Assembly (NCBI GenBank): GCA_964345305.1
Contig: CAYFQZ010000544.1
Location: 1 to 34,589 of the forward strand
Length of the DNA stretch: 34,589 bases
Origin: an uncultured Ignavibacteria bacterium
Lineage (GTDB): Bacteria > Zixibacteria > MSB-5A5 > SM1-73
Reading direction: 5' to 3'
The notes under the pieces are model-generated. The model was given only the letters and a program-made list of their open reading frames with translations, made no database searches and was not told the origin of the DNA. The position numbers and the translations under genes are program-made. Shown in pieces: positions 3,991 through 30,718 of this stretch; the stretch's first letter is position 1, and every line of letters starts with the position of its first letter.

Positions 3991-4083
3991 AACAGCTCCC
4001 TGGCGATAAGCCAAAAGAAGAAATCAGGTTTGTTTTGACTTTCACTCAATGATACGCACCCGCTTAACCTTTCCCCTGCCTAC

Positions 4084-6217: not shown

Positions 6218-6292
6218 GGATCTCCGCAGGTCGCATCATGGGAAGAAAGTCGATCTTGCGCGCTTCCGTGTCCTTCCGCAATTGTGGTTGAG

Positions 6293-9200
6293 ATGTCCAG
6301 ACAACAACCTTCAAAGATCCTGTCCCGTCGTTACCGGATATTGAGCCAACTGGGCGAAGGTGGAATAGGCAAGGTATACCGATCACACGACCGATGGACC
6401 GGAAGAGACGTGGCCCTCAAGCTGTTCTCTGCCCGGACGGACGACGGCAAGCTCTTGCGGGATTTTGAAAGTGAGTTCCTCCTTCTTACCCAACTCAAAC
6501 ACCCGGGAGTGGTGGAAGCGCTGGACTTTGGCCACTCCGAGCACGGGCCAGAGTCAGGTGATCTGCTGCCCTATTTTACAATGGAGTTTGTAGCGGGCAA
6601 GAGTCTAAGCGAGGCCTGCGCCCGCCTCTGTGATCCTGGAGGCTCACCGCTCGGGTTTGAGAGGCTCAGTCTTCTGGCCTGGCGCATCTGCGACATCCTG
6701 GAATTCCTCCACCTCCGGGGAATCGTCCACTGCGACCTTAAACCGGACAACGTAAAGGTAATCGGCAGAGCGCTTGCTCCCAAGATACTGGATTTCGGCC
6801 TATTCGAGACAATGGGCTCAAAAAGAGAGGAGAACACAAAGGGGACGCTTCCCTACATGGCTCCGGAGATGTTCAAACACGAGCCGTTGGATGGAAGAAC
6901 CGACCTTTACTCTCTGGGGGTCATTCTTTACCAACTCGTCACCTCAAGACTTCCCTTTTCCTCCGATGACCCGGTCAAGATCGTCTCGGCCCATATTCAG
7001 GAGTCGCCCAGACCGCCGTCGGAGTTTAATCCGAACCTCCCTGCCGACCTGGAGGAACTGATACTGAGGCTGCTGGAGAAGTCTCCCGCATCCCGTCCAG
7101 CCAATGCCACACAGGTCAAAGAAATGCTGACCGCGGGGCTGAGATCCTCTTCGGAGAAGACGGACAAGATCGTCTCTTGGCCCCAGAACACCCGCCTGGC
7201 TCACATAAACAGCGGCCCCATGGTGGGAAGACAGCGCGATTTTGACCGGATAGTGCTGGACATGACTTCGGCAACTGGCCAATCCGGAAGCTGTCTTTTC
7301 GTCTGCGGAGAGCTGGGAGTGGGAAAGACTTTCCTTCTCAAGCAGCTCCAGCTGACATCTCAACTGGAAAATATCGTCTACGTGGACGCAAGTTGCTTGG
7401 ATGGTCAAACCCTTGCCTACCAGCCGCTGATGGAAATCCTGCGTAAACTCGAGCCGTACGTTGAGAGCAGATGCAACCAGGGCATGCTGAGTGACTTGAG
7501 AGAGCTCTTCCGCTGGTCCGAAAGTAGCGTCTCCTCCTCTGCGGAAACCCAAGCCTCTTTTCACAGGAGGATTGCCAGACTGCTCTTATCGGTATCTGAG
7601 TCCTTTCCTTTCGTCGCCGTCGTCGAAAATCTGCAGTGGGCCGACCCGCCCACCTTACAGTTTCTGGAGCACTTCCAGACCGAGATAAACAAAGGTAAAG
7701 TCTTCCTGTGTTGCTCCCTGCGCCAAGAGAAACTCACGGGCAACCCAGCAGTAGAATCCTCGGTCAGGCGCTGCCTGGACAACAAGAATACAAAGCGTCT
7801 GGAACTCGGAAGGTTCGATCTTTCGACCACCAGGGATCTAATCTGCTCCAAATTGGCCGAAAACCAATTTCCCCCCGACTTCTTTACCCACGTTTACCAG
7901 AGAACCTCGGGGAATCCGTTTTTTGTGGTCGAGGCTCTCAAATACCTTCTGGAAAAAGACCTGATCATCCTGCGCCAGGGGTCTTGGGTGGTAGACCTTG
8001 GGGGCTTGCGGAGTGCTAAACTTCCTGCCACAATTGAAGCGGTTCTGGTCAAGAATCTGGGTACGTACGATAAAAGGACGCTCGATTTTCTGCAGACCCT
8101 GGCGGTGGTAGGAAACAGATTCTCTCTGCGCCTGCTGAGAGGGCTGACGCTGGCAGAGCCCGACGAGCTGTCGGAACTTTTGTCTCTGCTGACCCGGAAT
8201 CGGGTGCTTGTCCGAAAAGACCAAACCGGCGATGACGACGTCCTGTTCGAGTTTGCCAACCAGAGCCTCCAGAATCTGCTTTATCAGCAACAGAAGGAAA
8301 AGAGGCGAATCAGTTGGCACCGAAAGACTGCGGAGTTTCAGGAGAAGTTGAGTCCGAGCCGGGATGAGGAGGAGGTCTTCGAAATAGCCCACCACTATCT
8401 TCAAGGCAGAAGGCCGCTTAAGGCGTATCAGTATGCCCTTCTCTGCGCAGAAAAGATGGAACGAAGGTTCAGCACCGACGACGTACTGACCTATCTTGAG
8501 GACGCGGCCACAGCCGCTTCGACGTTTTCCGACAGTCAGGAAGCCATGAGAAAGGAAGCCGAGGCACGGAAAAAGAAGGCGGATTTCTGCCTCCGGGTGG
8601 GAGAACTCAATCAGGCAGAGAAGGAATACCTGTCGGTGCTGAGAATGATGAAAGGCAGAAGCGATCGCAAAATCCTGGTGGCGGCGTATAACGGGCTGGG
8701 TGAGGTCTGCCGGCTGAAACACGATTACAGGGGCGGCATAGCTTATCTCAAGAAGGCCATGGAGATTCATGGGGAGCTGAACGATCCTCTCGAACGGGCG
8801 CATACCCTCAGCTTCATGGGGTTGACCTACTGGATAGACAGTCAGTACCAGGAGGCGCTCAGTTGCTTCCGGGAAGCATTGGAGATAGACCGCAGCTTGG
8901 GCGACAGGTTCTACGAGGCCAACACGCTGAATAACATGGGACTGGTTTACTGGTCACGAAGGCAATACCCACAAGCGCTGGAGCACTTTACCGATGCTCT
9001 TTCCGTGTACAGAGAACTGGACAACAAGGAGTGGCTGGCGCGCACTCAAAACAACATCGGCGCCACCCTATTTGAGGTGGGGGATTACGTTCGTTGTATT
9101 GAGCACTTCATGGAGTCCTACAAGCTCAACCGGAAGACCGGTAATGAAAAGGAGATGGCCTTCAACCTGGAGAATCTGGGCGAGGCGTATCGAAAGGTCG

Positions 9201-9679
9201 GTGACTATTCCCGGGCTCTGGAGTATGGCCGGAAGGGACTCAGGCTGGCCACGGACATCGAGTTCACCGACAGGGTGGGACGCATCCTGAAGGGGCTGGG
9301 CGCGACTCATCTGGAGTTGGGTGAGTATGCCGAAGCCGGCGATTACCTGGGGAAAGCCAGAAAGGTGGCGGACGATATTGAGGATAAGGAATTACGCGTT
9401 CTGGTTCTGATCGAGTCGGCCAAACTGGCAACAACTGTCAATGACCTGGGTACTGCAGCCAGGCTCCTGGATGAAGCCACCAGCCTTGCGCGGGCCACAG
9501 ATGATGAGAAATCACTCATCACGCTCCTTCAACTGACTAGCTCGATCGAGAGGAGGCAGGGGAATCTCAAGCAGGCTCTGAAGCTTGTGGACCAAGCATT
9601 CGCCGTCTCGGAGAAGCTCAACGTGGGAGAAGAGACATTCGCCCTGAACCTGGATTGCGCAGAGCTGTATCTGAAATAA
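6293..9679 (+). CDS. Ser/Thr protein kinase fused to an AAA_16/STAND-type NTPase and a TPR array (PknK-like architecture)
   Basis: Hanks kinase motifs are GEGGIGKVY, VALK, HCDLKPDN, DFG and YMAPE. Walker A is GELGVGKT and a Walker-B-like stretch is FVAVVENLQWAD. Many TPR-like repeats follow (e.g. YRKVGDYSRALEYGRKGLRLA). The start is ATG 6293 or GTG 6284. The frame ends at TAA 9677-9679, in the middle of a TPR repeat. Confidence 0.9.
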   Translation: MSRQQPSKILSRRYRILSQLGEGGIGKVYRSHDRWTGRDVALKLFSARTDDGKLLRDFESEFLLLTQLKHPGVVEALDFGHSEHGPESGDLLPYFTMEFVAGKSLSEACARLCDPGGSPLGFERLSLLAWRICDILEFLHLRGIVHCDLKPDNVKVIGRALAPKILDFGLFETMGSKREENTKGTLPYMAPEMFKHEPLDGRTDLYSLGVILYQLVTSRLPFSSDDPVKIVSAHIQESPRPPSEFNPNLPADLEELILRLLEKSPASRPANATQVKEMLTAGLRSSSEKTDKIVSWPQNTRLAHINSGPMVGRQRDFDRIVLDMTSATGQSGSCLFVCGELGVGKTFLLKQLQLTSQLENIVYVDASCLDGQTLAYQPLMEILRKLEPYVESRCNQGMLSDLRELFRWSESSVSSSAETQASFHRRIARLLLSVSESFPFVAVVENLQWADPPTLQFLEHFQTEINKGKVFLCCSLRQEKLTGNPAVESSVRRCLDNKNTKRLELGRFDLSTTRDLICSKLAENQFPPDFFTHVYQRTSGNPFFVVEALKYLLEKDLIILRQGSWVVDLGGLRSAKLPATIEAVLVKNLGTYDKRTLDFLQTLAVVGNRFSLRLLRGLTLAEPDELSELLSLLTRNRVLVRKDQTGDDDVLFEFANQSLQNLLYQQQKEKRRISWHRKTAEFQEKLSPSRDEEEVFEIAHHYLQGRRPLKAYQYALLCAEKMERRFSTDDVLTYLEDAATAASTFSDSQEAMRKEAEARKKKADFCLRVGELNQAEKEYLSVLRMMKGRSDRKILVAAYNGLGEVCRLKHDYRGGIAYLKKAMEIHGELNDPLERAHTLSFMGLTYWIDSQYQEALSCFREALEIDRSLGDRFYEANTLNNMGLVYWSRRQYPQALEHFTDALSVYRELDNKEWLARTQNNIGATLFEVGDYVRCIEHFMESYKLNRKTGNEKEMAFNLENLGEAYRKVGDYSRALEYGRKGLRLATDIEFTDRVGRILKGLGATHLELGEYAEAGDYLGKARKVADDIEDKELRVLVLIESAKLATTVNDLGTAARLLDEATSLARATDDEKSLITLLQLTSSIERRQGNLKQALKLVDQAFAVSEKLNVGEETFALNLDCAELYLK

Positions 9680-10969: not shown

Positions 10970-11806
10970 CTAGAGCCTTCCCAGGTAGATGGCGGCCAGT
11001 CCCAAAAGCATATCCGCCTTCAGCAGGTTACTCAGGCGATGGAGATTGGATGTAGATGGGTCGCGCCGCATGGACCAGATCGCATACACCAGAACCAGAT
11101 CCACCCCCAGGACAACTGTGACCAGATAAACGACTGAAAAGACACGGAGGGCATAAGGGACCGGAGTCAGAATCATTAGAAGGACAAAAACCAGGGAACA
11201 GAAACCCATTGATCGATACACACCCACTCTGATAGGCAGTGTTGAAGCGCCCCTGAGTCGATCTCCTTCCACATCCTCAATGTCCTTTAGAACCTCCCGC
11301 CCCAGATGGAACAAAAAGGCGAAAGCGGCCGGGATCAGGGAGAGCCTGAAATCGCTGGTGGCCAGACCTCCGTAAACAAAGGCCGAGGCTGAAACCAGGG
11401 CTACGGTCAGATTCCCCCAGAGTAACCTGCTTTTCAACGAGTAGCTGTACATTATGAGGAGGCCGCTGGCGGCAATTGCCACCATTACGCTGGCCGGTCT
11501 GATCCAGAGGCTGGGAATTATTCCGCAGAAGATCAGCACCGTAGAGAACAACAGTGCAGAAGCGGGAGTAACCTCACCTCGGGGGAGAGGGCGATCTGGC
11601 TTGTTTATGCGGTCTATCTCCAGGTCGAAGAAATCGTTGATGGAATTTCCACCGGCGGAGACGAAGAAAGCAGAAACGCAGGCCAAAAGCACTTTTCCCC
11701 ACGACTCTACGGTTCCCGACACTGCGGCTCCGACGAACACCGATAGGGCCGCGATGAGATTGTTCTGAACCCGGGCAAGTTTTGCGAAGCTGAGGACTCT
11801 TTTCAC
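10970..11806 (-). CDS. UbiA-family prenyltransferase with digeranylgeranylglyceryl-phosphate-synthase-like motifs
   Basis: 278-aa polytopic membrane protein with a GTG start. The first Asp-rich motif is NSINDFFDLEIDRINKPDRPLPRGEV. The second motif is LGREVLKDIEDVEGDRLRGASTLP. N-terminal ARVQNNL is also typical of the DGGGPS-type UbiA subgroup. Confidence 0.85.
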   Translation of the reverse strand: MKRVLSFAKLARVQNNLIAALSVFVGAAVSGTVESWGKVLLACVSAFFVSAGGNSINDFFDLEIDRINKPDRPLPRGEVTPASALLFSTVLIFCGIIPSLWIRPASVMVAIAASGLLIMYSYSLKSRLLWGNLTVALVSASAFVYGGLATSDFRLSLIPAAFAFLFHLGREVLKDIEDVEGDRLRGASTLPIRVGVYRSMGFCSLVFVLLMILTPVPYALRVFSVVYLVTVVLGVDLVLVYAIWSMRRDPSTSNLHRLSNLLKADMLLGLAAIYLGRL

Positions 11807-11958: not shown

Positions 11959-13542
11959 CTAGAAACTGTTCGAGACTCCGAAGTGTATCATGCCCTCGGT
12001 GGTGCTTTGGCCGGGCGCCAGGCCGTAGTCGATTGCCACCAGGCCTGCTCTGGAATTGACTCGCAATCCGAAACCGTAACCCAGCTTCCAGGCCGAGATT
12101 CTCTCAACCGAACGGCTGCCGCGGGCGAGAGCCTTCCGCTCAAAGTAGCCGTAATCTGTAAACAGCAGTAATCTCGAATCCCCCTCCAGTAGGAACCTGT
12201 ATTCCAGGTTAGCCCATGTTACGGTGGTACCGAAAAACTCATCGTCGCGATAACCGCGGATACTGTTCCTCCCCCCGAGTTCGAATTGATCCGACACCGG
12301 GACCACCCTTTCGTCTGTGATCAGACCCTTCAAATGCAGTCCAACCAGGACAGTCTGGGCCTTCAAGCTGGGGAGGAAGTGCTCCAGATCCAAGGTAAGC
12401 TTGACTGAGGAGACGCGTTCTCTTCCGAAGGGCAGCGAGGCTGCGGGATGATTTATCTTATGAAGGTACCCTGCTTCGACGCCGTAAAGAATTCCCTTAC
12501 GTGGATTGTCGCGCCGGTCCAAAAGATCAAGCCCAAAGACTGCTCCTATCTTGTATTTCCGGCTGTCGGGTATGCAGCACTCGCCCGCCGGACCGGGGAC
12601 CACCTTCTCCCATCCGGCTTCCACCCCCCAGGATACCCTTTGCGTCGAGTTGAATAGGATTCTGGCACCAAACGAGAGCTTAAGAAATGTCGAATCACGG
12701 TCCGTCTGCGATAGGCTCAATTCCAGGGTAGGAGGCAAACCCAGCACCCAGGGCTCTCGGTAGGCAAAGAGCAGTCCTGAGGAATAAGAGTCCTTTCTGG
12801 ACCAGTTCCACTGCATCCTTCTTCCGGTGCCGAAGATGTTGTCAAAGATGAGTTCCACGCTGCCGAAGATGCTTCCGCCTTTAGCGCCCCTGCCCGGCGC
12901 GTAACCCAGCATTCCGCTGAAGCTATTGTTCTTTCTCTCCCTCAAGGCGATTCTCAAGATCCCCTCTTCCGGGTTATCCCCAGCCAGAAGCTGGGTGCGG
13001 TCGATCCTTTCTATGAACGACAGCCTTCCGATCCTGTTCAGGCCCGCCTCCAAACGCCTCTGTGAGAAAAACCCGAATATTCCCCCTCCCACCTCCCTCA
13101 GAATCACCTTTTTGCGGGTTGACTTAAGCCCCTCCAACTGGACTTCGGTGATTCTCACCCGGGGCCCCTCCTCCACCAGAAAGGAAAAGGTAATCTCTCC
13201 ATTACCCCAACTCCTGAAACCGGAGGGAGAGATTTGACAGTAGGGAAATCCGTTCTCCTCATACAGGTTCAATATCCTGTCTATGCTGTTTTCCAACCTA
13301 TGCAGGGTCAAGGGCGAATCAGGTTCCGTACCTATCTCCGATAGAATTCTATCGCTGTCGAGGAAGCGATTACCCTGGACCTGAATCCGTTGGGAACGGC
13401 AGGGTTTCTCCTTCTCCCCCCAGCTCTCCTCTCCCAGCGCGGGGGCGCACCAAAGCCACAGAGCACAGGCAAGCGGAAGCAACAGACTGCCCTGTCTGAA
13501 TCCCACAGGCATAATGGATCTGGCTGGTCGACGACTCAACAT
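11959..13542 (-). CDS. Omp85/BamA-TamA-family outer-membrane protein with about two POTRA domains
   Basis: I prefer ATG 13542, preceded by GGAGAAGAAG, which gives the signal peptide MLSRRPARSIMPVGFRQGSLLLPLACALWLWCAPALG. The track ORF extends to 13728 and would overlap the upstream gene. POTRA-like segments are IQVQGNRFLDSDRIL... and ITEVQLEGLKSTRKKVILREV. The barrel carries ELGGRNSIRGYRDDEF and ends ...HFGVSNSF. Confidence 0.85.
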   Translation of the reverse strand: MLSRRPARSIMPVGFRQGSLLLPLACALWLWCAPALGEESWGEKEKPCRSQRIQVQGNRFLDSDRILSEIGTEPDSPLTLHRLENSIDRILNLYEENGFPYCQISPSGFRSWGNGEITFSFLVEEGPRVRITEVQLEGLKSTRKKVILREVGGGIFGFFSQRRLEAGLNRIGRLSFIERIDRTQLLAGDNPEEGILRIALRERKNNSFSGMLGYAPGRGAKGGSIFGSVELIFDNIFGTGRRMQWNWSRKDSYSSGLLFAYREPWVLGLPPTLELSLSQTDRDSTFLKLSFGARILFNSTQRVSWGVEAGWEKVVPGPAGECCIPDSRKYKIGAVFGLDLLDRRDNPRKGILYGVEAGYLHKINHPAASLPFGRERVSSVKLTLDLEHFLPSLKAQTVLVGLHLKGLITDERVVPVSDQFELGGRNSIRGYRDDEFFGTTVTWANLEYRFLLEGDSRLLLFTDYGYFERKALARGSRSVERISAWKLGYGFGLRVNSRAGLVAIDYGLAPGQSTTEGMIHFGVSNSF

Positions 13543-13625
13543 CTTCTTCTCCAAAAACCATAACGTGGATTTGAACCTATCCAATCCTGCGCTATGCACT
13601 TTGGCCATCCTTATCACGCGTTTCT

Positions 13626-16600
13626 CTAGAAAACCGCCTTCAGCTCCATTCTTGCCCGGTGATAAGCCCTTCTGTGCGCCAGGACTTCGCCGGAGTAAGC
13701 CGCGGATGTGACAATATGTGAGCCCCACTTATAATCGAAGAAGAGGCGCCAATCGCAGTTTTCTCCCCGTCCTTTTCCGTCGGAGAGAGCATAAGAAAGA
13801 CTGCCGCCGCCCCGCGGGGAAGCAAGGTGAGTCCATCGAAATTCAGCCTTCAACCTTCCGCGTGAGAGAAGGGACCATACCAGCTTGGGGGACAGGCTGT
13901 AGATGTCCACCCTTGTGCCGCTGATCTCTTGGTCCCTTCTCCGGTACTGCGCAGACGCGTTGAGTTCCAGTGCCCGAGCCTGCCTTCTGGTAAATCCAAG
14001 ACTCACGCCCTTGCCCATAACAAGATCTCTGGTCCCTCCCTCTCGCTTGTCTTCGATCTCTTCGGCGTCTATCTGGAGCTCAAGGAAATGTACGGAGGAA
14101 ATACGGGATCTCAACAGAAGCTCGTGTTTGAGCGTTTCGTGTTGTCTGTCCCCATTTGACAGCAGCCTTTCTGCCTCTTCACTCTTCTCCCATCTGAATC
14201 GAAGGTTGAGGGGTCTGGAACCGTCGAGAAAGTACAGGTCATGCCGAACCAGCACATTCTGAGAGAGAATCTCCTTATCCGGCAGACCCGTAAGGGGATA
14301 GAGAAAGTAGAAAGCCAGCGACCTTCCTCCCGCCAATCTTCCTCTGAGGCTGAGGAAGGAATCGGTGGACAGTAGCCTTGCTACTCGCCACCAGAAAAAG
14401 CTGGGCCGTTCCCTGGATGACAGCTTGTTGGGAGAAAAGATCACCCTCACGCTTTTGTTCACCTCTGACGATGGCTGGCCCTCCCCCACCCATTCCGACA
14501 GCCGGACGAAGTCGCCCTCTGGATCGGCAACATAGTCTCCGTCTTCGTATCGATAGTTCCCTCTCCCTTCCTCCACCTCCAGATAGCTGTCCACCCTGCG
14601 GGAGGAGTGAATCTGGTTTTGGGAATGATAGAATTTTACGTTGACGATCTGGCTGGGAGGATAGAAATCCATTCTGCTTGTCACCAAATCCCATTTGTTT
14701 TCCGAACCCTCGGAACCACTTTGTTTCTTTATCCTTCGGGTAAACTCGAGATCCGAGGAGAGCATGGCCCGGAAGTCGCGCAGGGAGAGGCGCTGACGCA
14801 CGCTGTAGCCGAAAGACTTTTTCTCTTGGAAACCCTGACCCTCCCGATAGGTCAACTGCGTGCTGGTTCTCAAGCTGGGCGATAAACCCAGGCTTACCTC
14901 CCCGCCGAGCTGATCAAAATTGTCCCTCTCAGCAGCCGATGCCCAAGTGGCAGCGTTGTTCCTTTCCCGCTGCCAGGATAGCTCAGCGTAGAGCCTTCTG
15001 TACCTGCTGCTCAGAACCACCAGGTTCCTTGTCTGCAGGCCATCTTTTGTCGCCCCCCCATCCCCGGTCATCCTTGATTTGATCCTCTCGGTCTTTGCCT
15101 TCGCAGAAGCCCAGCTTACAGGAACCAGCTGGGTGCCCAAACTCATCTTTCTTACGGCGAACTCTCCTTCCGCCTGAAGCTTCCCATATCCGAAATCGAC
15201 CTGGAACGATTTGGAGGGCGCGACAAGTCCGCTGAACTGATAAGTTTTCTCGTCTGTGGAGACAGACTCTTCGGTCAGCCCCCATGTTCTCGCCTTCTCC
15301 ACCGGCTCTACCCTCCCGAACGGGGCGAAGTCGCGGCCTATCAGCCTATACTCCCCTTCAAGTCTGATCAGGTGGAACTCCGGCTTGAGAAATTGAAAAT
15401 CCGTCCTATGGTAGGCGGATCTGACCAGAAGCGCGTCGCCCCAGTTATTCTCGTCATCCTTGCCAGAGAAAGTATTCTTATCCCTCTTGCTTTTGGCCCA
15501 TTCCATCTCGGCCTTCAAATTCTCCGCAGGACGCAGGGAGAGACTCAAGTCAAGAAGAGAATGGCTCTCAGGCAAAGGCAGAAGCACCACGGGCGAAAAG
15601 CCTCCGTTCCCCGGATACACGTATTGGCATATGCCGCCTCCGATATAGCTGTAGCTTCCCTTTCCCGGCCCCACCCAGGAGAATGAGACCCGGTAGGAGC
15701 CCGAGTCGCTGCCTGCGTATCGGTAATAGGGGACACCCAGAGAATCGTGGGCCAGTTCGTACTCTCCTTGACCTTTCCCTACGAACTCGGCGCCATCTCT
15801 CGAGGCCATGATTCTGTCGCTTCCGGCATCGCTGAGGATCTTCCTGTCCTCTGCAGAGAGGGTGAAGGCGGAAGGACGGTTTCGGTCGTCCTCCTCCAGT
15901 ATTCCCGAAGCCTTAAGCTTCAGCCTCCCGTCGAGAAATGAGGCGCCGACATTCGCGCCGTGAAAATCCCTTCTGTAATCCTCTACCGAATATTCGAAAT
16001 CGACGGCTATCCTGGTCTCCGAGGTAACCAGCCTTCTTGGGGTAAACTCAAGCGTGCCCCGGCCGTAGTCGATGCTATAATCGTTATTCGAGCCCCTTTC
16101 CATCTTTTCCCCGTCCACCCACACCGACTCTGTTCCGGGCAGGACCGTTATGTTGGTCTCTCCGTTTCTGCCCTTCAACCGGTAGGGGCCCTGTTTGTTG
16201 TCCTGGCCATAAAACCTGTTGGTGAAACTCTCGCCATTGGTGGAGGCGAAGGCAACCGAGGCCGAGGCTCTGCCGCTTCTGGCCTGTGCCGTCACCCCCT
16301 TCAGTTTCTTCTGGTAGAAAGACAGCTCCGATTCTGGAGTGGTGAGATAATAGTCTCCCAGCGTGCCGGAGAAATTCCGGGACTTGACCAGCATTTGGAC
16401 TTTGTCCAGCTCTGCTAACCTCTTTGTGCTCCCTTCGGGCAGGGCGGGCATGTTCTGATCCGAAAGCTGGAGCGAGACCTCCAGATTCCTCGCAGCATTT
16501 CCTTTGGCCGAGAGCCGCAGGCCCTGTTTCAGCGAAACGTCCTCAGAAGAGCCCACCTCGAATGAAAAGGTCTTGCTTCCAGACAGAACGATCTCGGAAG

Positions 16601-17174
16601 ATGCCTGTCTGGAGGGGAACTTCAGACCGCCCCCTTTGTCGACCCCGGCCAGTGTGCCTCGTATGGACGTAGACTGAGCCGCAGGGGGCTCGCTGGCCGC
16701 CCGCACCAGCTCCCGGTGAAAATAACGTCTCCTCAAGTTAAACTTGAACTTTTTATACCTAATCTCAAGTGAATCAGTGGGATAAAGGGCGGCGGAGAAG
16801 CTGATCTGACCACGGTCGTAGTCCATTGAGTAGTCTACATCTCGCCTCAGCACAAGCCCGTTCTTCTGCACCACGTCCGTATTCTCGAAAATCAAATGAT
16901 CCTTAAGCCTGTATGGACCGGGCGTTCCGTTTCCGGTCAAATGCACCACTACTTCCATGTCGAGATCTGACGGCGGGTCGCTCGCCGCCCCACCGATAGC
17001 GGGCCAACATGTGAAAAGAAGCGCCAGCATAATGGCTGCCAGCGGCTGAGCAAAGGGCTTTGCCCTGCCACCAGAGACAAAATTGCCCCCACATGAAGAA
17101 GGAAAGATGAGCCATCTGGTGGAGGGATGCACCGGTTTGGATCCTTCGCGTGCTTCCGGCGGTAACTTTCTCAT
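13626..17174 (-). CDS. Large (1182 aa) secreted protein of unrecognised family, predicted outer-membrane beta-barrel
   Basis: The ATG is preceded by AGAGG. A hydrophobic signal-like segment is AAIMLALLFTCWPAIGGAAS. Two Ig-like modules share GPYRLK...DYS[MI]DY.RG. Long runs of alternating amphipathic beta-strand pattern follow. The C-terminal OMP-type beta-signal is ...ARMELKAVF. No catalytic motif is recognised. Confidence 0.8.
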   Translation of the reverse strand: MRKLPPEAREGSKPVHPSTRWLIFPSSCGGNFVSGGRAKPFAQPLAAIMLALLFTCWPAIGGAASDPPSDLDMEVVVHLTGNGTPGPYRLKDHLIFENTDVVQKNGLVLRRDVDYSMDYDRGQISFSAALYPTDSLEIRYKKFKFNLRRRYFHRELVRAASEPPAAQSTSIRGTLAGVDKGGGLKFPSRQASSEIVLSGSKTFSFEVGSSEDVSLKQGLRLSAKGNAARNLEVSLQLSDQNMPALPEGSTKRLAELDKVQMLVKSRNFSGTLGDYYLTTPESELSFYQKKLKGVTAQARSGRASASVAFASTNGESFTNRFYGQDNKQGPYRLKGRNGETNITVLPGTESVWVDGEKMERGSNNDYSIDYGRGTLEFTPRRLVTSETRIAVDFEYSVEDYRRDFHGANVGASFLDGRLKLKASGILEEDDRNRPSAFTLSAEDRKILSDAGSDRIMASRDGAEFVGKGQGEYELAHDSLGVPYYRYAGSDSGSYRVSFSWVGPGKGSYSYIGGGICQYVYPGNGGFSPVVLLPLPESHSLLDLSLSLRPAENLKAEMEWAKSKRDKNTFSGKDDENNWGDALLVRSAYHRTDFQFLKPEFHLIRLEGEYRLIGRDFAPFGRVEPVEKARTWGLTEESVSTDEKTYQFSGLVAPSKSFQVDFGYGKLQAEGEFAVRKMSLGTQLVPVSWASAKAKTERIKSRMTGDGGATKDGLQTRNLVVLSSRYRRLYAELSWQRERNNAATWASAAERDNFDQLGGEVSLGLSPSLRTSTQLTYREGQGFQEKKSFGYSVRQRLSLRDFRAMLSSDLEFTRRIKKQSGSEGSENKWDLVTSRMDFYPPSQIVNVKFYHSQNQIHSSRRVDSYLEVEEGRGNYRYEDGDYVADPEGDFVRLSEWVGEGQPSSEVNKSVRVIFSPNKLSSRERPSFFWWRVARLLSTDSFLSLRGRLAGGRSLAFYFLYPLTGLPDKEILSQNVLVRHDLYFLDGSRPLNLRFRWEKSEEAERLLSNGDRQHETLKHELLLRSRISSVHFLELQIDAEEIEDKREGGTRDLVMGKGVSLGFTRRQARALELNASAQYRRRDQEISGTRVDIYSLSPKLVWSLLSRGRLKAEFRWTHLASPRGGGSLSYALSDGKGRGENCDWRLFFDYKWGSHIVTSAAYSGEVLAHRRAYHRARMELKAVF

Positions 17175-17219
17175 GCGTGCCTCTGCTTCGTCGGGCGGTT
17201 CGGAGATGACCGTTGCCCC

Positions 17220-18167
17220 CTATCTTAGAAGCTCAAAGATTAGTATGCGATTGTTCCCGGAATCGACGACCAGGAGCTGGCTTTCCCCTACCACTTTCAG
17301 GTCAGTGGGTCTGGACAGATTGGCCATTCCAGGTATCGACTTCCCATATTCCGCTAGCGCATTGCCGTCCGGATCGAATACCACCACGCTGTTTTTCCCG
17401 CTGTTTGCCACGTAGACCAACCCGTCTTTGCCTACCGCAACGCCGTTCGGGTCTTCCAGAACCTGCTCGCCGAAACTCCTCAATGTGTTTCCGAAAGAGT
17501 CAAAGACGACTATGCGGCTATTCTGTGAGTCCGCAACGTAAACGTCTCCGTCCCGGTCTACGAAAATTCCCTTGGGATCGCGCAGACCCGTCTCCGATTC
17601 TCCGAAGCCTCCAAAGCTCCTCTCGTATTCAAAGAACGAATTCAACTTGAACACCTGGTCGCTCTCCATGTCCGACACCAGAATCTCCCCGGAAAAAGTG
17701 ATACCTATTCCCTGCGGCAGACCGAGCCCCAAGAAATCGTTCTGTTCCCGGATTTCAAGGGTGGAGACGAAGTTGAGGCTGCGATCCAGCCTCTGTATTC
17801 GCTTGTTCTGAGCGTCGACCACGTATATGTTCAGCCCATTGTCGGTGGCTATGTACGCGGGGCGATTGAACTCCCTGCTGCCCCATCCAAAGCCCCCGGC
17901 CTCCGCCAGAAACCTTCCCTCACCGTCACACTTGACCACCCGGTCGTTGCCGGTATCGGTGATAAAGATGTTCCCCAGCGGATCAACTGCGATTCCGATG
18001 GGCAGATATAAAGAAGCACTGCCCAGTTTTCTATCCCCGATGATCCCCACCGGGTTGAGCCCCTTAACCTTTTCTTCCAGGTGCAACCCGTTTTCGCCGC
18101 CCCGCTGTTTCCCGCCGAAGGACATGCAGGCACAGCATAGAACCAGAAAAAAGGGCAGGCATCTCAT
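17220..18167 (-). CDS. NHL-repeat beta-propeller protein (secreted/periplasmic)
   Basis: I prefer ATG 18167, which gives the signal peptide MRCLPFFLVLCCACMSFGG; AAGGAGAGG lies upstream. There are six NHL-like blades, e.g. GIAVDPLGNIFITDTGNDRVVKCD, YVVDAQNKRIQRLD, YVADSQNSRIVVFD, YVANSGKNSVVVFD and LVVDSGNNRILIFE. Confidence 0.85.
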   Translation of the reverse strand: MRCLPFFLVLCCACMSFGGKQRGGENGLHLEEKVKGLNPVGIIGDRKLGSASLYLPIGIAVDPLGNIFITDTGNDRVVKCDGEGRFLAEAGGFGWGSREFNRPAYIATDNGLNIYVVDAQNKRIQRLDRSLNFVSTLEIREQNDFLGLGLPQGIGITFSGEILVSDMESDQVFKLNSFFEYERSFGGFGESETGLRDPKGIFVDRDGDVYVADSQNSRIVVFDSFGNTLRSFGEQVLEDPNGVAVGKDGLVYVANSGKNSVVVFDPDGNALAEYGKSIPGMANLSRPTDLKVVGESQLLVVDSGNNRILIFELLR

Positions 18168-18425
18168 TCTTCTCAATTCGGCCTCTCCTTTACATTTAAG
18201 CTTCAGCCCATCGCATCCCCACAAAGTCTGCTTGCTTCCAAACGTGGCCGTATCCGCGGGATTTTCCAAATGCGCCGATCCATCCGGCATCTCTCATGGA
18301 CCGGAATAGACCCGGGCCGGCTCCCGCACCTTGCCGTTTTTTCCTCGCCGTTCTCACGCCAACGCCGACAGGCAGGGCGCGGCACCCCGGTATGGTAGTC
18401 CGCCAACCGAAAGAAAAGACGACAA

Positions 18426-18463
18426 CCCAAAAACCAAAAATCGCATCCTGGGTCGATGCGATT
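18426..18463 (-). terminator. Intrinsic terminator after the second paralog, splitting the minus-strand array into two transcription units
   Basis: The minus-strand RNA reads AAUCGCAUC-GACCCAG-GAUGCGAUU, a 9-bp stem from 18439-18447 / 18455-18463. It runs into UUUUUGGUUUUUGG. The site is ~50 nt after the TAA at 18513-18515. Confidence 0.7.
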
Positions 18464-18512
18464 CGGTTAGCAAGATGCCGGGTCAATCGATTCTCGAAAG
18501 CGAGCTTTCTTC

Positions 18513-19346
18513 TTACCATCTTCGGGAGAGATAAAGCATGACCGTGGGATTATGGCCCAGAGGGTTGGCTTGGAGGTCAAACTTTACCTGAGAAAGTTCG
18601 AGGCTTTTCTTTCTGTTGTAGCTGCGCACGGTCTTCAGCGCATCCACCACCGAGACTATGCGATTCACCACGGAAAGCCCCACCATATATAGAGCCCTTC
18701 TTGACATGTCTTTACTTCTGTTCTTCATGTCCCTGTAATGCAACCGGGACTCCCGGCTGTCCCATTGCCAGTTCCAGAAGTCATCCTGGGGATAGGGCTG
18801 CTTTTCACCCCGGTTGTACAGCGGGGCAAACTGGTTATACTGATCTCGGTTTTCGTAGAATGCCAGTTCATCGAAGAACTGGTCAGATTTTCCGTCCGGG
18901 TTCACCCGGGCGTGGTCAGCGGCATAGCTTTTATAATCCTCCTTGAGCCAACCGCTGTACGTCCGGAACCCGAAGAAACCGGCCCACAACGACGCCTCGG
19001 AAAGCATGAATATCTTACCCTTGGTCTCTGCGCCGCCGTAAATCTCCCCCGCACCGGGAAGAATGAGCGAAAGCAGGGCGGCCGTGCTGGCCGATTTCAG
19101 CCCTTCCTTCTCCTCCTCAAACTCACCCGGCATCTGAAAGAAATCATCCTGCTGGTTTGCTCCCGAACCTCCAGCCAAAAAGCGCGGATCGTCCAGGGCA
19201 AAGCTGATCCCTGCTGCCTCAGGATACAACCTCTTCTCCGGCGACGTATCGCATCTCACCAGCGTCTCGGTCGCGGCGTAGCTCCGGCCGGAGGCCGATA
19301 CGCCCATGATAAGCAGAAGCGAAAAGAGGAAGATTGTCTTTTTCAT
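18513..19346 (-). CDS. Hypothetical secreted/membrane protein, paralog B (PG-x-G-x-x-Y helical-hairpin family, DUF5683-like)
   Basis: ATG 19346 (TTG 19352 in the track) gives the signal peptide MKKTIFLFSLLLIMGVSASG. Motifs shared with 19388-20272 are LSLILPGAGEIYGG, ASLWAGFF and NRIVSVVDALKTVRSYNRKK. The protein ends in an aromatic residue (..LYLSRRW). Confidence 0.75.
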   Translation of the reverse strand: MKKTIFLFSLLLIMGVSASGRSYAATETLVRCDTSPEKRLYPEAAGISFALDDPRFLAGGSGANQQDDFFQMPGEFEEEKEGLKSASTAALLSLILPGAGEIYGGAETKGKIFMLSEASLWAGFFGFRTYSGWLKEDYKSYAADHARVNPDGKSDQFFDELAFYENRDQYNQFAPLYNRGEKQPYPQDDFWNWQWDSRESRLHYRDMKNRSKDMSRRALYMVGLSVVNRIVSVVDALKTVRSYNRKKSLELSQVKFDLQANPLGHNPTVMLYLSRRW

Positions 19347-19387
19347 CGGCAAAGTCTTGATCGGGTCCCGGACTTGCGAGAGGCCAT

Positions 19388-20272
19388 CTAAAAATCAAGG
19401 CTCATAGAGACGCGCGGAATCACCTCTCGGTCCCTTTCCACAAGTCTCATCTTGAAATTCAGCTGGCTGAACCTTTCCCCTTTCTTGTTGTATTTCCGAA
19501 CCGAGATGGCGGCATCGAAGGCGGAGAGTATGTGGTTGGCCAGCGAGAACATGGCCGAATACGTGGCCTTGTTCAACAGATCGTTGGAGTCGCGACGCAT
19601 ATTCAGATAAACTTCTCTGTTTGGGCTTGACCCATCATCGGGTGCCGGCTCGTAGTCGTCCCAGCCTTCGGAGAACTGCTCATATTTGCCGATCATCTCG
19701 TAGTAATCGTCCGTCTTTGAATCCGGCAGGTGGTGAGAGAAACACTTCTCTTCGTGGGTGACCGGATCAGTATAGCACTCCCTGTCCGAGTCTATGCCAT
19801 AAGTATCCCGCAGCCACTGTATGTATTCGTCCCTGGACCAGTGCCGGTCAGCGAACACCTGGTATTCGTCTTCTTTGTCCTTCCCCTTGCCGTGATAGTT
19901 GAAATAAAGGGCCCACAGCGCGGCGTCCAGCCCCAGAAAGACCACTGTCTTTATCTTGGAACCGGCATATAGCTGTCCGCTCCCCGGGATCAGCAGAGAG
20001 TAGACGAAGGCCCGCTTCAGGGACTTGCCCTTGAACCCGTATATGTCCACGGCCTCCTCCTCCCCCAGCGGACCGGTCTCCTGGGCCAGTAAGGGGGATT
20101 GAGTGAGCTTGAGCATCTTCAGTGATCGCTCAAAATCGACCTGGGCAAGATCGCTGCGAAACGAGAAAGGCTCGTCTCTGTTCTCGACGAACGTTGTCCC
20201 CCTGCCTGAGGAATACACGACAAGCATAAAGGCGAGAAAGCATACCGTAGCCCGAACGTATCTGCTGCTCAT
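19388..20272 (-). CDS. Hypothetical secreted/membrane protein, paralog A (PG-x-G-x-x-Y helical-hairpin family, DUF5683-like)
   Basis: The ATG is preceded by AAGGAGG with a 5-nt spacer. The signal-like N-terminus is MSSRYVRATVCFLAFMLVVYSSG. Motifs are YSLLIPGSGQLYAGS, AALWALYF and NHILSAFDAAISVRKYNKK. It ends ...RVSMSLDF, which resembles a beta-signal. Confidence 0.8.
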   Translation of the reverse strand: MSSRYVRATVCFLAFMLVVYSSGRGTTFVENRDEPFSFRSDLAQVDFERSLKMLKLTQSPLLAQETGPLGEEEAVDIYGFKGKSLKRAFVYSLLIPGSGQLYAGSKIKTVVFLGLDAALWALYFNYHGKGKDKEDEYQVFADRHWSRDEYIQWLRDTYGIDSDRECYTDPVTHEEKCFSHHLPDSKTDDYYEMIGKYEQFSEGWDDYEPAPDDGSSPNREVYLNMRRDSNDLLNKATYSAMFSLANHILSAFDAAISVRKYNKKGERFSQLNFKMRLVERDREVIPRVSMSLDF

Positions 20273-20337: not shown

Positions 20338-23300
20338 CTATTTGACGATGGCCATCTTGAAGAACACCACCTGGCTTTGGCTCGTCGATTTTGCCTCCAC
20401 CCGGCAAAGGTAAACTCCGCTCGCAAACCCGGAGCAGTCCCAAATTCGCTCGTTATGCGTGCGCCCCTGTCCCGGCCCCGGGAATTGATCAACCAACATT
20501 CCTGAGAGATCATAGACTCTTATCCCGACCGCTGCGTCCTCTTTCAAGAAGTACCTGATAATCGTTTCATCCCCGGCCGGATTGGGATAGTTGAAGGCGG
20601 TCTTCTGTGGCAGCAAATCACCGGCCAGAGCGGGGAGTTCGGGCAGCTTCTCTTTGGGGAAGTAATTGGTGTGCCCGGCATCGAAGCCATACATGGGCCA
20701 AGGCATGCTCTCCTCCGTGTCCTGGGCGGGTAAGTCCCAGGCGTAGATGAAGCCATCATCACACGCGACCAGGAGTTCCACGTCGCTGTCTCTGTCAAGG
20801 TTGATCAGAAGCGGCGATGATCTAACCGGTCCGCCGACCGGAAGAGGGAAACCGCCTACCATCCTACCATCTCTGCTGTAACCCACGATTCGCCCGTCTT
20901 TAGTGCCGACGATTATGTCGGGATACCCGTCTCCGTCAGCGTCTCCCAGAATCGGCGAAGAGTCGATCAGATCTGTGCCGCCGCCCGGGAGGCTCAGCAT
21001 GACCGGGAAGTTACCCACCGGCGCACCATTAAAATTGTAAGCAAAGATCTTGTTGCCCGAGGCCAAGATTATCTCCAGATAGCCATCTTTATCCAGGTCT
21101 CCCAGAACCGGGGCGGACGCAATACCTTCGCCAGCTGATACGGGGAATCCTTCCAGCAAACCCAGTTCTGTGTCATAGGCGTATATCTCTCCTCCTGCCA
21201 TGCAGCAGAAGACCACGTCGCTGCTGCCGTCCCTGTCCAGGTCCCCTACCACCAGGTGGCGTCCTATGTCTCCACACGCGTCGGTACACTCCACAAAGTC
21301 CTGAGAGTAGATGTTCCACTTACATAGTTGAGCCTCATGTCCCTGGTGACTTGTTACCACGAAATTGACAGTGCAGTCTCCGGTGGTTGCCAGCCCGTAA
21401 ACGGACTTCTGGAAAGGGGAGGAATACAGAACTTCGCCTGCAGAGGAGATAACGACAACGCCGACGTCCAGAATTCTGTCAGTCGCCACAAATATCTCCA
21501 GGCCTGATTTCGAGGAGTCGAAATTGGCGATCACCGGCATCGTCGTAATGCCGGTTGGCGCCGGGTCACCCAGCTGAAGGGGGAAGCCATCTACGGGGTC
21601 CGCTCTTCCGTTCTGGTCTCGATCATAAGGATGCCAGACGCAGACTTTGCCCTTCGCAGTTGCCGCCACCACCTCCAAGGTGTCGTCTCCGTCCAAGTCA
21701 CCCAAGGATGGGGGTCCGACAAAGTCCTCGTTCTCTTCGGCGAATATGGCCAGCGGCAGTGTGGTCAGGGTGGAATCGTATAGCATTATCTCCACCGAAT
21801 CCGGATACGGGAACAAGCTGGCACCTGAAGCATCCCACCCGTGTATGAACCGACCGGAGGAAGCGAATATCCTTAGGTCATTCTCCGCAGAGACCAGAGA
21901 GCTTACCCCCGCCTCGGGAATGAACTTTTGAGGGAAACCGGCCTGAACCCAGGCTGTGGAAACATCCAGCGTCATTACCGTATCCGATCGGCCGACATCG
22001 GCGACCTGGATGTGGGTGTCCGACCCGCCTCTGCTTCTTGACGAAGGAAACGTGTAAGGACCAAAATCGGCATTATTGCCCCGGCGAAACATGTCCTCGG
22101 CCCGGCCAAACCCGGTGTAATAGTTGCCTCCGAAATCTATGATGCCGTCCGCCTCCTCCAGTTCCAGAAAGCGCCGATCCTTATCCACCTGGAGGTGATT
22201 GTCCCAGAAGTTGTTCAGTCCGTCAAGATCGTAGTCATAATAGGCCACATCTTCGTCCAGATGCCAGATGAGAGTTCCCGAGCCTGGCAGAAGCCAGTCA
22301 TATTCCCGGTTGTAATCCAGCTCGGCATCCACCGGACCCAGGATGACGTTGGTGGCGCTGTCCGCCCGCAGTGCGCTAAATCCGTCGCCGTCCAAGTCCT
22401 GCTGGCGATTCTCCACCAGAAAATACTCGCTCGGACTGATGGGAATCCGGATCAGTCGAAGCTGGTCGGTCAGCATCTCGGATGCTCGCAGCTCTATCTC
22501 CGTCTGATTCTTGATCTCCACCGGTTCTACGAATCCGAGGAAGGCCTTGCTCCACGCGCAGGGGTAAACCGGCAGCACGCCGTTGACGAAAACGTCATAG
22601 CCCACATCCACCCCTACGTTTTGGGCATTGTTATCCATCAAAGCGAAATCGCCCACCTGGGTCATGAAGTTTACCGAATTATACAGATCGGGCAGACCCA
22701 ATTGATGACCAAACTCGTGAGCGAACTCCGCATTCAAGGCACCGACTCGATTGTCTTGTGATCTGGTTTCCGGCATAAAAATACCGTCCGTTATTGGAAA
22801 CGTGTCGCCGTCCACCCACACCGTATCACTAAGCCTGATGTAACCGGTGAAAAGATCTCCCGGGGTGGGATTGACCAGTTCTCCCAGATCGCTCTGCAGG
22901 TCCGAGCCGGCGTGAAAGATCACAAAGCAATCATACTGTGAGAAGTCGATTCCGTAAATCTGCGGATCTTCGTACACCGAGAAGGAATCCGCCAGATTGA
23001 AGCTGTCGTGGAAGAACTGTCTGAGCATCTCCACCTTGTAGGAGAGAGACGAATCCGGGGCGCCGTAGTGAGCCATGGCATCTGGCAGCCGATAAGCCAG
23101 GCTCTCGTGTTTGGGAAAGACCTGGCCTTCCAGCGCCAGCCCTCCGCTTGATACCGTCGACCAGTAATTGTGCAGGGCCTGAATATGCTTGGTGAAGAAA
23201 AGCGTATCGTGAGGCGAGGGGTCTATCAGGTGGCCTTCCTCCTGCAAGAACTCCTCCTGAGCTCTCATGTCGAAAAGTCCGTTGCCCGTGGTTCGGGGAT

Positions 23301-26262: not shown

Positions 26263-26367
26263 ATCGAAAACCTCCTTGCGATCCCAGCTATTACCGTCAT
26301 GCGCTTCAGCTGATTTCATGGACTTTCCTCTGGTTCCCAGGTTCTGTGTCTTTACTGCTCGACTTGA

Positions 26368-26395
26368 AATATAGCCATTTCTTTAAAATCGGCAA
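26368..26395 (-). promoter_or_regulatory. Possible internal sigma70-type promoter ahead of the PorV-like gene
   Basis: The minus strand reads TTGCCG (26390-26395), a 16-nt spacer ATTTTAAAGAAATGGC, then TATATT (26368-26373). It sits in the 199-bp gap between the PorU-like and PorV-like genes. The -35 element is weak. Confidence 0.3.
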
Positions 26396-26461
26396 GATTT
26401 TTGGAAAGATGAACGCACCTGGAAAGTGAGCTTCTTCCCTATGAGTGAGTCTCATCGTCTC

Positions 26462-30466: not shown

Positions 30467-30718
30467 AGACAGAAAAGCCGAGTAAACCCTCAAAACGCAG
30501 AAGCTCTTCCCTCTAAGATTTTCGGGAAGCACTACTCGGCTGGATGGCCTACAATCGCTCCAGCCAAAAGGGTTCGGGACTGACTTCCTCATAGAATCGA
30601 CAAGGACCTTCCGCTATTTACCTGCCGCAGAGACTCAGGCACAAACATCGCGGATTCGAATAACAAACCCTTTAGCTGTTGCTCCTATAGGCTTACCTCT
30701 CTTTGATTTATTTTCCCT

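Follow-up and report, generated by a model that had tools for sequence, protein, structure and literature searches.

The largest outer membrane (OM) beta-barrel with a solved structure is that of SprA, which has 36 strands (10.64898/2026.03.07.710327; 10.1101/2022.10.09.511469). SprA is specific to the Fibrobacterota-Chlorobiota-Bacteroidota (FCB) group and has an extracellular polypeptide of >150 kDa, and its canonical form has been reported across the FCB phyla except Chlorobiota (PMC12611786). Single barrels of 38 and 40 strands have been proposed in silico by Solan et al. as a "superfamily of large OMBBs" (outer membrane beta-barrels) (PNAS 2021; PMC8346858). Here we describe a four-gene operon, coding for a predicted barrel of similar scale, in a 34,589-nucleotide stretch of DNA (hereafter the window; contig CAYFQZ010000544.1 of assembly GCA_964345305.1) from an uncultured Ignavibacteria bacterium that GTDB places in the Zixibacteria. 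In order, the four minus-strand genes code for an NHL propeller, a protein of 1182 amino acids (aa) referred to here as the giant protein, a short Omp85-family protein, and a UbiA prenyltransferase. Neither the giant protein nor the NHL-giant-Omp85 trio has a curated family or a paper that we found, while the components themselves (an OM barrel, an Omp85 protein, and a propeller) are of familiar types. Literature searches on IALB_1764, LIC_12708, GWxTD, and the system for type IX secretion (T9SS) in Zixibacteria, KSB1, and Calditrichota found nothing on the giant-protein family.

Open reading frames (ORFs) in the window were read mechanically, and start codons were then refined from ribosome-binding-site and signal-peptide evidence. 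The ORFs of the operon are not chance ORFs, since they are long and have hundreds of full-length homologues; GC content across the region is even (0.54-0.56). Because they share a strand, follow a terminator, and are separated by gaps of only 45 to 152 bp, the four genes look like one transcription unit, which from its sequence would comprise a three-part outer membrane module and a prenyltransferase. Both the terminator and the close packing had been pointed out in an earlier note, written by a model from the sequence of this DNA alone. The hairpin and T-run are placed here at 18464-18438 on the minus strand, right after the DUF5683 gene, and the gaps measure 45, 83, and 152 bp. The features of the operon are as follows.

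18438..18464, minus strand: intrinsic-terminator-like hairpin with a 10-pair stem and a T-run, with the tail TTGGTTTTTG; it closes off the DUF5683 unit upstream and lies ahead of the operon.
17220..18176, minus strand: NHL-repeat six-bladed beta-propeller protein with an N-terminal signal peptide (Pfam NHL, ribosome-binding site, orthologue synteny).
13626..17174, minus strand: 1182-aa giant protein, a predicted outer membrane beta-barrel (no Pfam family; homologues, AlphaFold2, topology statistics).
16746..16961, minus strand: first beta-sandwich (module 1) of the giant protein, at aa 72-143; a disordered linker (aa 150-192) comes next (AlphaFold2, pLDDT 83-90).
13629..16589, minus strand: part of the giant protein predicted to form the barrel (aa 196-1182), with ~38 amphipathic transmembrane strands (DSSP of the model, hydrophobic belt, loop parity).
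15978..16208, minus strand: second beta-sandwich (module 2) of the giant protein, at aa 323-399, which sits within the loop that follows strand 7 (alignments, TIGR04189 match).
13629..13664, minus strand: C-terminal beta-signal strand of the giant protein (...YHRARMELKAVF), its terminal Phe invariant in the 40-sequence alignment.
11959..13542, minus strand: 527-aa Omp85-family protein (Pfam Omp85 and POTRA, AlphaFold2, Foldseek).
13171..13401, minus strand: POTRA1 of the Omp85 protein (aa 48-124; AlphaFold2).
12937..13155, minus strand: POTRA2 of the Omp85 protein (aa 130-202; AlphaFold2).
10970..11806, minus strand: UbiA-family prenyltransferase, DGGGP-synthase-like, the last gene in the unit (Pfam UbiA, NCBIfam).

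A Pfam scan assigned the giant protein to no family, and NCBIfam returned only a 24.5-bit local match to TIGR04189, the SprA/Sov model. When 40 diverse family members were scanned against both collections, no family was matched besides a small beta-sandwich module. Searches of the PDB with the single sequence, a 40-sequence profile, and a module profile gave chance-level matches only and none to SprA, TamB, or LptD. A word-indexed search recovered 329 homologues, nearly all of 1100-1200 aa, all annotated as "hypothetical," and none with a precomputed Pfam domain; IALB_1764 of Ignavibacterium album is among them. In an exhaustive search of representatives at 50% identity, 2660 sequences matched at an E value of ≤1e-3 and 1725 at ≤1e-30, again nearly all of 1100-1200 aa. 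A GTDB scan with one genome per species found the protein in at least 588 species (588 confirmed among 600 pattern matches), and the best 80 of these at least 588 belong to Zixibacteria, KSB1, Calditrichota, LCP-89, Zhuqueibacterota, Ignavibacteria/Melioribacteraceae, and Chloroherpetonaceae. Judged by these searches, the 1182-aa protein is the founding member of an unannotated FCB-wide family. The earlier note had been unable to assign it to LptD, TamB, SprA, TonB-dependent receptors, or autotransporters, and the Pfam, NCBIfam, and PDB searches agree: no confident match to TamB, SprA, or LptD arose. LptD, a TonB-dependent receptor, and an autotransporter were each considered and rejected, as there was no OstA, LptD, Plug, TonB_dep_Rec, or autotransporter match in the 40 members.

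Several lines of evidence indicate that this family consists of very large OM barrels. An AlphaFold2 run on the 40-sequence alignment gave a mean pLDDT of 80.1 and a pTM of 0.68, with most strands above 90. In this model, DSSP assigns 38 long hairpin-joined strands, running from aa 196 to the C-terminal Phe (aa 1181/1182). They are preceded by a signal-peptide helix, a beta-sandwich (aa 72-143), and a disordered linker (aa 150-192), and small domains are inserted in the barrel at aa 323-399 and 435-536. The signal-like segment and the two Ig-like modules described in the earlier note thus find their counterparts in the helix (the N termini in the family are cleavable Sec signal peptides with ..AQ or ..SQ at their ends) and in the small beta-sandwiches at aa 72-143 and 323-399, which are seen in both the model and a segment scan. 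The gene (13626-17174) ends in ...MELKAVF followed by a TAG stop. That this is a canonical C-terminal beta-signal, as had been proposed, is borne out by the family, whose C termini follow RAE[VM]RA[FY]F and in which F1182 is invariant among the 40 aligned sequences.

The topology statistics, which come from a separate 314-sequence alignment, point in the same direction. The 37 strand connections alternate in length, with those of one parity summing to 77 aa and carrying 3.4 inserted residues and those of the other summing to 363 aa and carrying 32.0; the latter, even-parity side also holds 10 of the 11 connections of ≥9 aa. This asymmetry implies the classical arrangement, in which the turns on the periplasmic side are short and the extracellular loops long and variable. 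Over nearly all of the ~8 positions closest to the periplasmic end, the outward face of the strands has a hydropathy of approximately +1.6 to +2.0 and is ≤4% charged; it has a Tyr/Trp peak at positions 6-9 and turns polar afterwards. The inward face is ~40% charged along its whole length. Read from the alignment, this pattern is that of a membrane-thick hydrophobic ring around a water-filled, charged lumen. Because the belt is ~8 residues long, the lumen charged, and the indels confined to one loop parity, the giant protein is better described as a true outer membrane barrel than as a TamB-like protein. The sequence and the model together indicate that it is a Sec-exported integral OM barrel of ~38 strands with a charged interior. 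The long amphipathic strands pointed out in the earlier note are borne out by belt, parity, and model, and they would close into a very large barrel. A soluble, non-barrel fold was not seen, as both AlphaFold2 and the alignment statistics give membrane strands. In Foldseek searches with the model, the top 50 PDB matches were all OM barrels. The four SprA entries scored highest, with TM-scores normalized by the query (TMq) of 0.22-0.28 versus ≤0.17 for the rest, and none was close; for LptD or BtuB, the scores normalized by the target (TMt) were 0.2-0.3.

The 40-sequence alignment is best conserved over strands 1-8, over the loop spanning aa 239-258, and over module 2, so that a specific functional site is suspected in this part of the protein. 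Module 2 is the most conserved segment of all (QGPYxL...GTExVxVDG...RG..NDY.I.Y..G.I.F...SRI.VDFEY). It is of note that strand 1 (aa 196-208; window positions 16551-16589) differs from most of the other 37 strands in being Gly/Ser rich, in having no hydrophobic face, and in its lower pLDDT; at this strand the barrel may have a seam or an edge to which a partner binds.

The mechanical ORF of the Omp85 gene (11959-13728; 589 aa) overlaps the 3' end of the giant gene by 103 nt. Its start is placed at ATG 13542, which has a GGAG 6 nt upstream and opens a signal peptide (MLSRRPARS...ALG/EES), giving a protein of 527 aa; since the ribosome-binding site and signal peptide begin there, the upstream 62 codons are almost certainly untranslated. 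Pfam matches Omp85 (PF01103) with 87.8 bits, one POTRA domain with 44.4 bits, and ShlB with 23.6 bits. The AlphaFold2 model (pLDDT 85.4, pTM 0.74) consists of a signal peptide, two POTRA domains (aa 48-124 and 130-202), and a 16-strand barrel (aa 206-527), so that the "about two" POTRA domains of the earlier note become exactly two. The loop-6 motif IRGY is retained, with R429 and G430 invariant and Y431 conserved. The protein therefore has the 16-strand barrel, the POTRA domains, and the loop-6 (V/I)RG(Y/F) motif by which the Omp85 superfamily is recognized. In contrast to the giant-protein model, the Omp85 model recovers genuine relatives in Foldseek, superposing best on BamA (POTRA4-5 plus barrel; E ~1e-24, TMq 0.55-0.66) and next on TamA. 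Against the BamA model TIGR03303, however, it scores 105.4 bits versus a cut-off of 297 and covers profile positions 246-726 only. With this score and its two POTRA domains, it is not a housekeeping five-POTRA BamA, as had been suggested; the BamA of I. album has been listed as IALB_0497 (PMC12611786). Homologues are 510-600 aa long and annotated simply as "BamA/TamA family." A TamA identity was rejected in view of the two rather than three POTRA domains, a score of 19.7 bits versus a cut-off of 625 with the TamA model NF047950 (the TamL match was likewise negligible), and the lack of a DUF490 gene in the window. An identity as TpsB/FhaC was rejected as well, given 23.6 bits for ShlB versus 87.8 for Omp85 and a partner that has no two-partner secretion (TPS) or haemagglutinin domain and appears itself to be an OM barrel. 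Both its sequence and its model indicate a competent protein of the BamA/TamA barrel type with a TpsB-like POTRA count, outside all named subfamilies.

The NHL gene spans 17220-18290 as a mechanical ORF, and its likelier start is TTG 18176 or ATG 18167, behind the ribosome-binding site AAGGAGAGG. The six-blade propeller that had been proposed is upheld by the Pfam NHL match (E=1.5e-34) together with six NHL-type repeats that are legible in the translation, and the protein is, on this evidence, a secreted six-bladed NHL propeller. We noticed that it weakly matches the NCBIfam model NF047780 (LIC_12708 family) and that the Omp85 protein weakly matches NF047779 (Omp85 family), two consecutive accessions. 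The LIC_ tag presumably points to Leptospira, and a propeller-Omp85 pairing might, by these profile matches, also occur in spirochaetes.

The association of the three genes is conserved across considerable evolutionary distances. An NHL orthologue lies immediately upstream of the giant gene at 31 of 74 testable loci. At the 63 loci testable on both sides the distribution is bimodal: both partners are present at 21, only the NHL gene at 3, only the Omp85 gene at 2, and neither at 37. The NHL-giant-Omp85 order is kept in KSB1, Calditrichota, LCP-89, Zhuqueibacterota, and unclassified metagenome-assembled genomes (MAGs) at 25-31% giant-protein identity, and outside the Zixibacteria the trio genes often overlap or sit tens of bases apart. 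The pairing of giant barrel and Omp85 is thus not accidental, in line with the dedicated Omp85 of the earlier note, and the synteny holds in Zixibacteria, four further named lineages, and unclassified FCB lineages, though it is lost in the class Ignavibacteria, which accounts for essentially all of the loci with neither partner. A possible connection to the adjacent T9SS-type module, also raised in that note, fared less well. In the Zixibacteria a block is conserved that comprises genes for a PorU-like C25 peptidase, a PorV-like protein, an M6 protease with a T9SS C-terminal domain (CTD), and two DUF5683 proteins, followed by the NHL, giant barrel, Omp85, and UbiA genes. T9SS genes were found at none of the KSB1, other trio, or Ignavibacteria loci, where the contexts are unrelated. 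On gene context, the T9SS connection of the trio is therefore weak. Clustering of the neighbors around the trio revealed no further widely conserved partner besides UbiA; two apparent clusters were artefacts of antisense ORFs. In a KSB1-like subgroup (loci L013-L017, L026, and L080), the stretch upstream of the NHL gene repeatedly carries genes for a ~138-aa protein and, in divergent orientation, an NlpC/P60-like lipoprotein.

In light of these data, the explanation that we consider best overall, and hold tentatively and with somewhat less than even confidence given its basis in sequence and models, is a gated OM conduit with a dedicated Omp85 insertase or partner and a propeller accessory. 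The translocon/insertase pair suggested in the earlier note is likewise a hypothesis. What passes through the giant barrel would be a large hydrophilic substrate. The Omp85 protein would act as its dedicated insertase and/or as a stable lateral partner, much as TamA accompanies TamB and PorV accompanies SprA. The NHL propeller may be a periplasmic accessory, either a BamB-like helper of the Omp85 protein or a plug for the giant-barrel lumen. The most economical form of this proposal is a gated conduit with a partner as its seal, because a lumen of ~38 strands seems too wide to stay open and the protein's own inserts amount to only ~300 aa. It is also conceivable, though we would sooner doubt than assume it, that the trio is a previously unrecognised FCB outer membrane machine, a gated translocon of a new kind whose single-chain barrel of ~38 strands would exceed that of SprA in size and whose integral partner would be the Omp85 protein; such a machine might be a counterpart to the T9SS pore, either independent or ancestral.

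A number of observations weigh against a gated conduit of this kind. Barrel closure and the number of strands are predicted from DSSP and from statistics on the sequences rather than from model coordinates. A 38-strand pore would need a plug, and the part of the NHL propeller as that plug is one that we purely infer. The sole long periplasmic connection, aa 914-934, follows strand 26, so that a 26+12 two-barrel architecture is formally possible from the model; one rigid body is favored because the pTM reaches 0.68 despite ~190 disordered residues. Mean-field direct coupling analysis of strand 1 versus strand 38 and of the 26/27 junction was dominated by gap artefacts at an effective sequence number of ~250, and adjacent-hairpin controls could not be separated from background. 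In the class Ignavibacteria the giant gene is solitary, standing among housekeeping genes of the NUDIX, PfkB, IF-2B-like, RecO, and HtrA types, and in one Ignavibacteriales MAG (locus L086) the Omp85 orthologue sits in a GWxTD-Omp85-UbiA unit with the giant gene elsewhere. Together, the two arrangements imply that physical coupling is not obligatory at the gene level.

Other readings account for part of the same evidence. The giant protein might simply be a client of structural or porin-like character that is too large for the general machinery of beta-barrel assembly (BAM), with the Omp85 protein and the propeller serving as a private assembly line that only folds it and forms no lasting complex with it, and with no cargo dedicated to it. 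BamB is likewise a beta-propeller, the Omp85 protein resembles BamA in structure and keeps its RGY loop intact, the giant protein bears a canonical beta-signal, and the housekeeping surroundings of the Ignavibacteria gene would also fit. A charged 38-strand lumen, however, ill fits a passive porin and would need gating, conservation is highest in segments of loop and module between aa 239 and 400, as would be expected of a specific functional site, and the Omp85 gene persists with UbiA but without the giant gene in L086. We therefore regard such a client relationship as a real but unlikely alternative. That the genes are mere neighbors of unrelated function is very improbable; the loss of synteny in the class Ignavibacteria would agree with it, but the NHL-giant-Omp85 order is retained in at least five phylum-level lineages despite giant-protein identities of 25-31%, the gaps are short with frequent ORF overlaps, and the partners follow an all-or-none pattern (21 loci with both, 37 with neither, and 5 mixed). 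A divergent translocation and assembly module (TAM), with the Omp85 protein as TamA and the giant protein as a TamB/AsmA-like, periplasm-spanning chute for lipid or protein, is largely refuted and retains hardly any probability. An Omp85 protein with few POTRA domains beside an all-beta protein of >1000 aa does resemble this system, and DSSP cannot separate a beta-taco from a barrel. However, the 40 members contain no DUF490 or AsmA domain and the PDB searches gave no TamB match, the signal peptides are cleavable and not uncleaved inner-membrane anchors, and a hydrophobic face of ~8 residues with an aromatic girdle, opposite a face that is 40% charged, leaves no continuous groove. The asymmetry of loop parity, top Foldseek matches that are barrels, and the low score with the TamA model (19.7 versus 625 bits) argue in the same direction, and a TamB-like giant protein was rejected on the signal-peptide, belt, and parity evidence.

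The comparison with SprA needs to be made at greater length, as the giant protein might be a compact SprA/Sov relative or equivalent that exports cargo with a T9SS CTD, in which case the upstream PorU and PorV genes would belong to the same system. Both proteins are FCB restricted, the giant protein is predicted to be a very large single-chain OM barrel as SprA is (PDB 6H3I, 6H3J, and 8GL6), the SprA pore requires partner proteins to seal or gate it, and in the Zixibacteria the trio directly follows the block of C25, PorV-like, M6-CTD, and DUF5683 genes and thus adjoins PorU- and PorV-like genes. The two also have in common a beta-sandwich module of ~50 aa, corresponding to TIGR04189 positions 602-653, which 23 of the 40 family members match with a best E value of 2.5e-9. 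In the giant protein itself, the match to this model reaches 24.5 bits versus a cut-off of 200 and is limited to aa 342-395. When the protein was scanned as seven segments, TIGR04189 was matched only by the two beta-sandwich modules, both at model positions 602-652 (module 1 weakly, at 604-636, and module 2 at 602-653 with E=3.5e-6), and the barrel segments matched nothing, SprA included. The same module matches phage distal-tail or tail-tube families in 15 to 18 of the 40 members. No SprA_N domain was found by Pfam among the 40 members, and the SprA of Flavobacterium johnsoniae in the PDB (6H3I) was missed at E≤10 by the whole-protein profile, the module profile, and the single sequence. The Foldseek matches to 8gl6, 6h3i, 6h3j, and 8gl8 (E ~1e-8) give the highest TMq of all, although at 0.22-0.28 this is still poor. 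With 1182 aa, of which the extracellular connections take up 363, the giant protein has half the size of SprA (~2400 aa; range, 2300-2500) and is without its large cap, the >150-kDa extracellular polypeptide (PMC12611786), while its predicted strand number is ~38 as opposed to 36. Its partners are an Omp85 protein and an NHL propeller, whereas those of SprA are PorV, Plug, and PPI. Furthermore, a terminator separates the T9SS block from the trio, and the T9SS neighborhood is confined to one phylum. Since SprA occurs in all FCB phyla but Chlorobiota (PMC12611786), the two barrels probably coexist; no SprA-sized ORF was present in the 85 loci examined. Membership in the SprA family was therefore rejected, the ~50-aa module and a similar overall scale being the only links, and we consider a compact SprA-type exporter to be improbable.

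The gated conduit with its Omp85 partner, which we continue to prefer, can also be set beside other described systems. Like TAM, it would pair a short-POTRA Omp85 protein genetically with an all-beta protein of >1000 aa, but the giant protein appears to be a cleaved barrel with a beta-signal whereas TamB is a DUF490 beta-taco anchored in the inner membrane, and here there are two POTRA domains instead of three, the gene order is reversed, and a propeller is added. With BAM it shares an Omp85 model that superposes best on BamA POTRA4-5 plus barrel, the RGY loop, and a propeller accessory encoded alongside. It differs in having two rather than five POTRA domains, in a TIGR03303 score of 105 bits versus 297, in the lack of a BamD in the unit, in a six-bladed NHL propeller as opposed to the eight-bladed PQQ-like BamB, and in being tied to one giant barrel. 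Two POTRA domains and a single large partner gene are reminiscent of two-partner secretion (FhaC/TpsB with TpsA); here, however, the Omp85 barrel is of the PF01103 type with a marginal ShlB match, and the partner is a predicted OM barrel with a beta-signal and not a secreted beta-helix with a TPS domain. In LptD-LptE, a small protein with a gene of its own occupies the lumen of a large OM barrel, and the NHL propeller could be analogous to it, but the giant protein has no OstA/LptD domains and no sequence or structural match to LptD, and it is predicted to have 38 strands, not 26, and a charged lumen. Finally, the large OMBB superfamily of Solan et al. likewise comprises predicted single barrels above SprA size, and its strand count of 38 agrees with that of the giant protein; a partnership with Omp85 and NHL proteins was not described in that work.

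If the trio is a working unit, a conserved Omp85-partnered OM machine would join BAM, TAM, TPS, and the T9SS translocon, and at its center would be a barrel that equals or exceeds in size any with a solved structure. This would bear on the assembly of very large barrels, on the role of Omp85 paralogues with few POTRA domains, and on outer membrane construction and use in FCB lineages other than the Bacteroidia. The question can be tested directly, because members of the large and wholly unannotated family occur in the cultured I. album (IALB_1764) and in Melioribacter.

The last gene of the unit matches Pfam UbiA with 149 bits (E=1.6e-43). In NCBIfam it scores 247.6 bits with PRK12884 (cut-off, 269) and 226 bits with PRK12882 (cut-off, 296) and is thus nearest to archaeal-type models resembling digeranylgeranylglyceryl phosphate (DGGGP) synthase, under their cut-offs. 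It follows the two-POTRA Omp85 gene in the Zixibacteria and also at locus L086 (5507-6331), where the giant gene is absent; because of this GWxTD-Omp85-UbiA unit, the link between Omp85 and UbiA is independent of the giant barrel.

The remaining genes of interest in the window lie on both sides of the operon. Between the M6 protease gene and the NHL gene (18513-20272, minus strand) are two tandem paralogues of ~280-295 aa with weak DUF5683 matches; NCBIfam gave no match, and the order of the pair is conserved in the Zixibacteria only. The M6 gene (20338-23616, minus strand) encodes a 1092-aa immune-inhibitor-A-like metalloprotease with FG-GAP repeats and a T9SS C-terminal sorting domain and is a conserved cargo gene within the Zixibacteria block. 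Further upstream (23689-30592, minus strand) is a pair of genes of the T9SS attachment type, of which one encodes a 1376-aa PorU-like protein with a C25 peptidase, a propeptide, and a FlgD_ig/CHU_C-type C-terminal domain. The other encodes an 876-aa PorV-like protein with Reg_prop (propeller) and LysM matches in its N-terminal half, which by these matches may be a fusion of a propeller with a PorV/PorQ-type protein. The PorU/PorV-like block is kept in Zixibacteria loci L004-L009 and L012. On the other side of the operon, the window carries a second C25-family peptidase gene with a terminal dockerin type I domain (520-4014, minus strand) and a gene (6284-9679, plus strand) whose 1131-aa product is a Ser/Thr kinase that also contains AAA_16 and TPR domains. 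The Ser/Thr kinase gene and an adjacent GAF-PAS histidine kinase gene are also found downstream of the operon in Zixibacteria locus L005.

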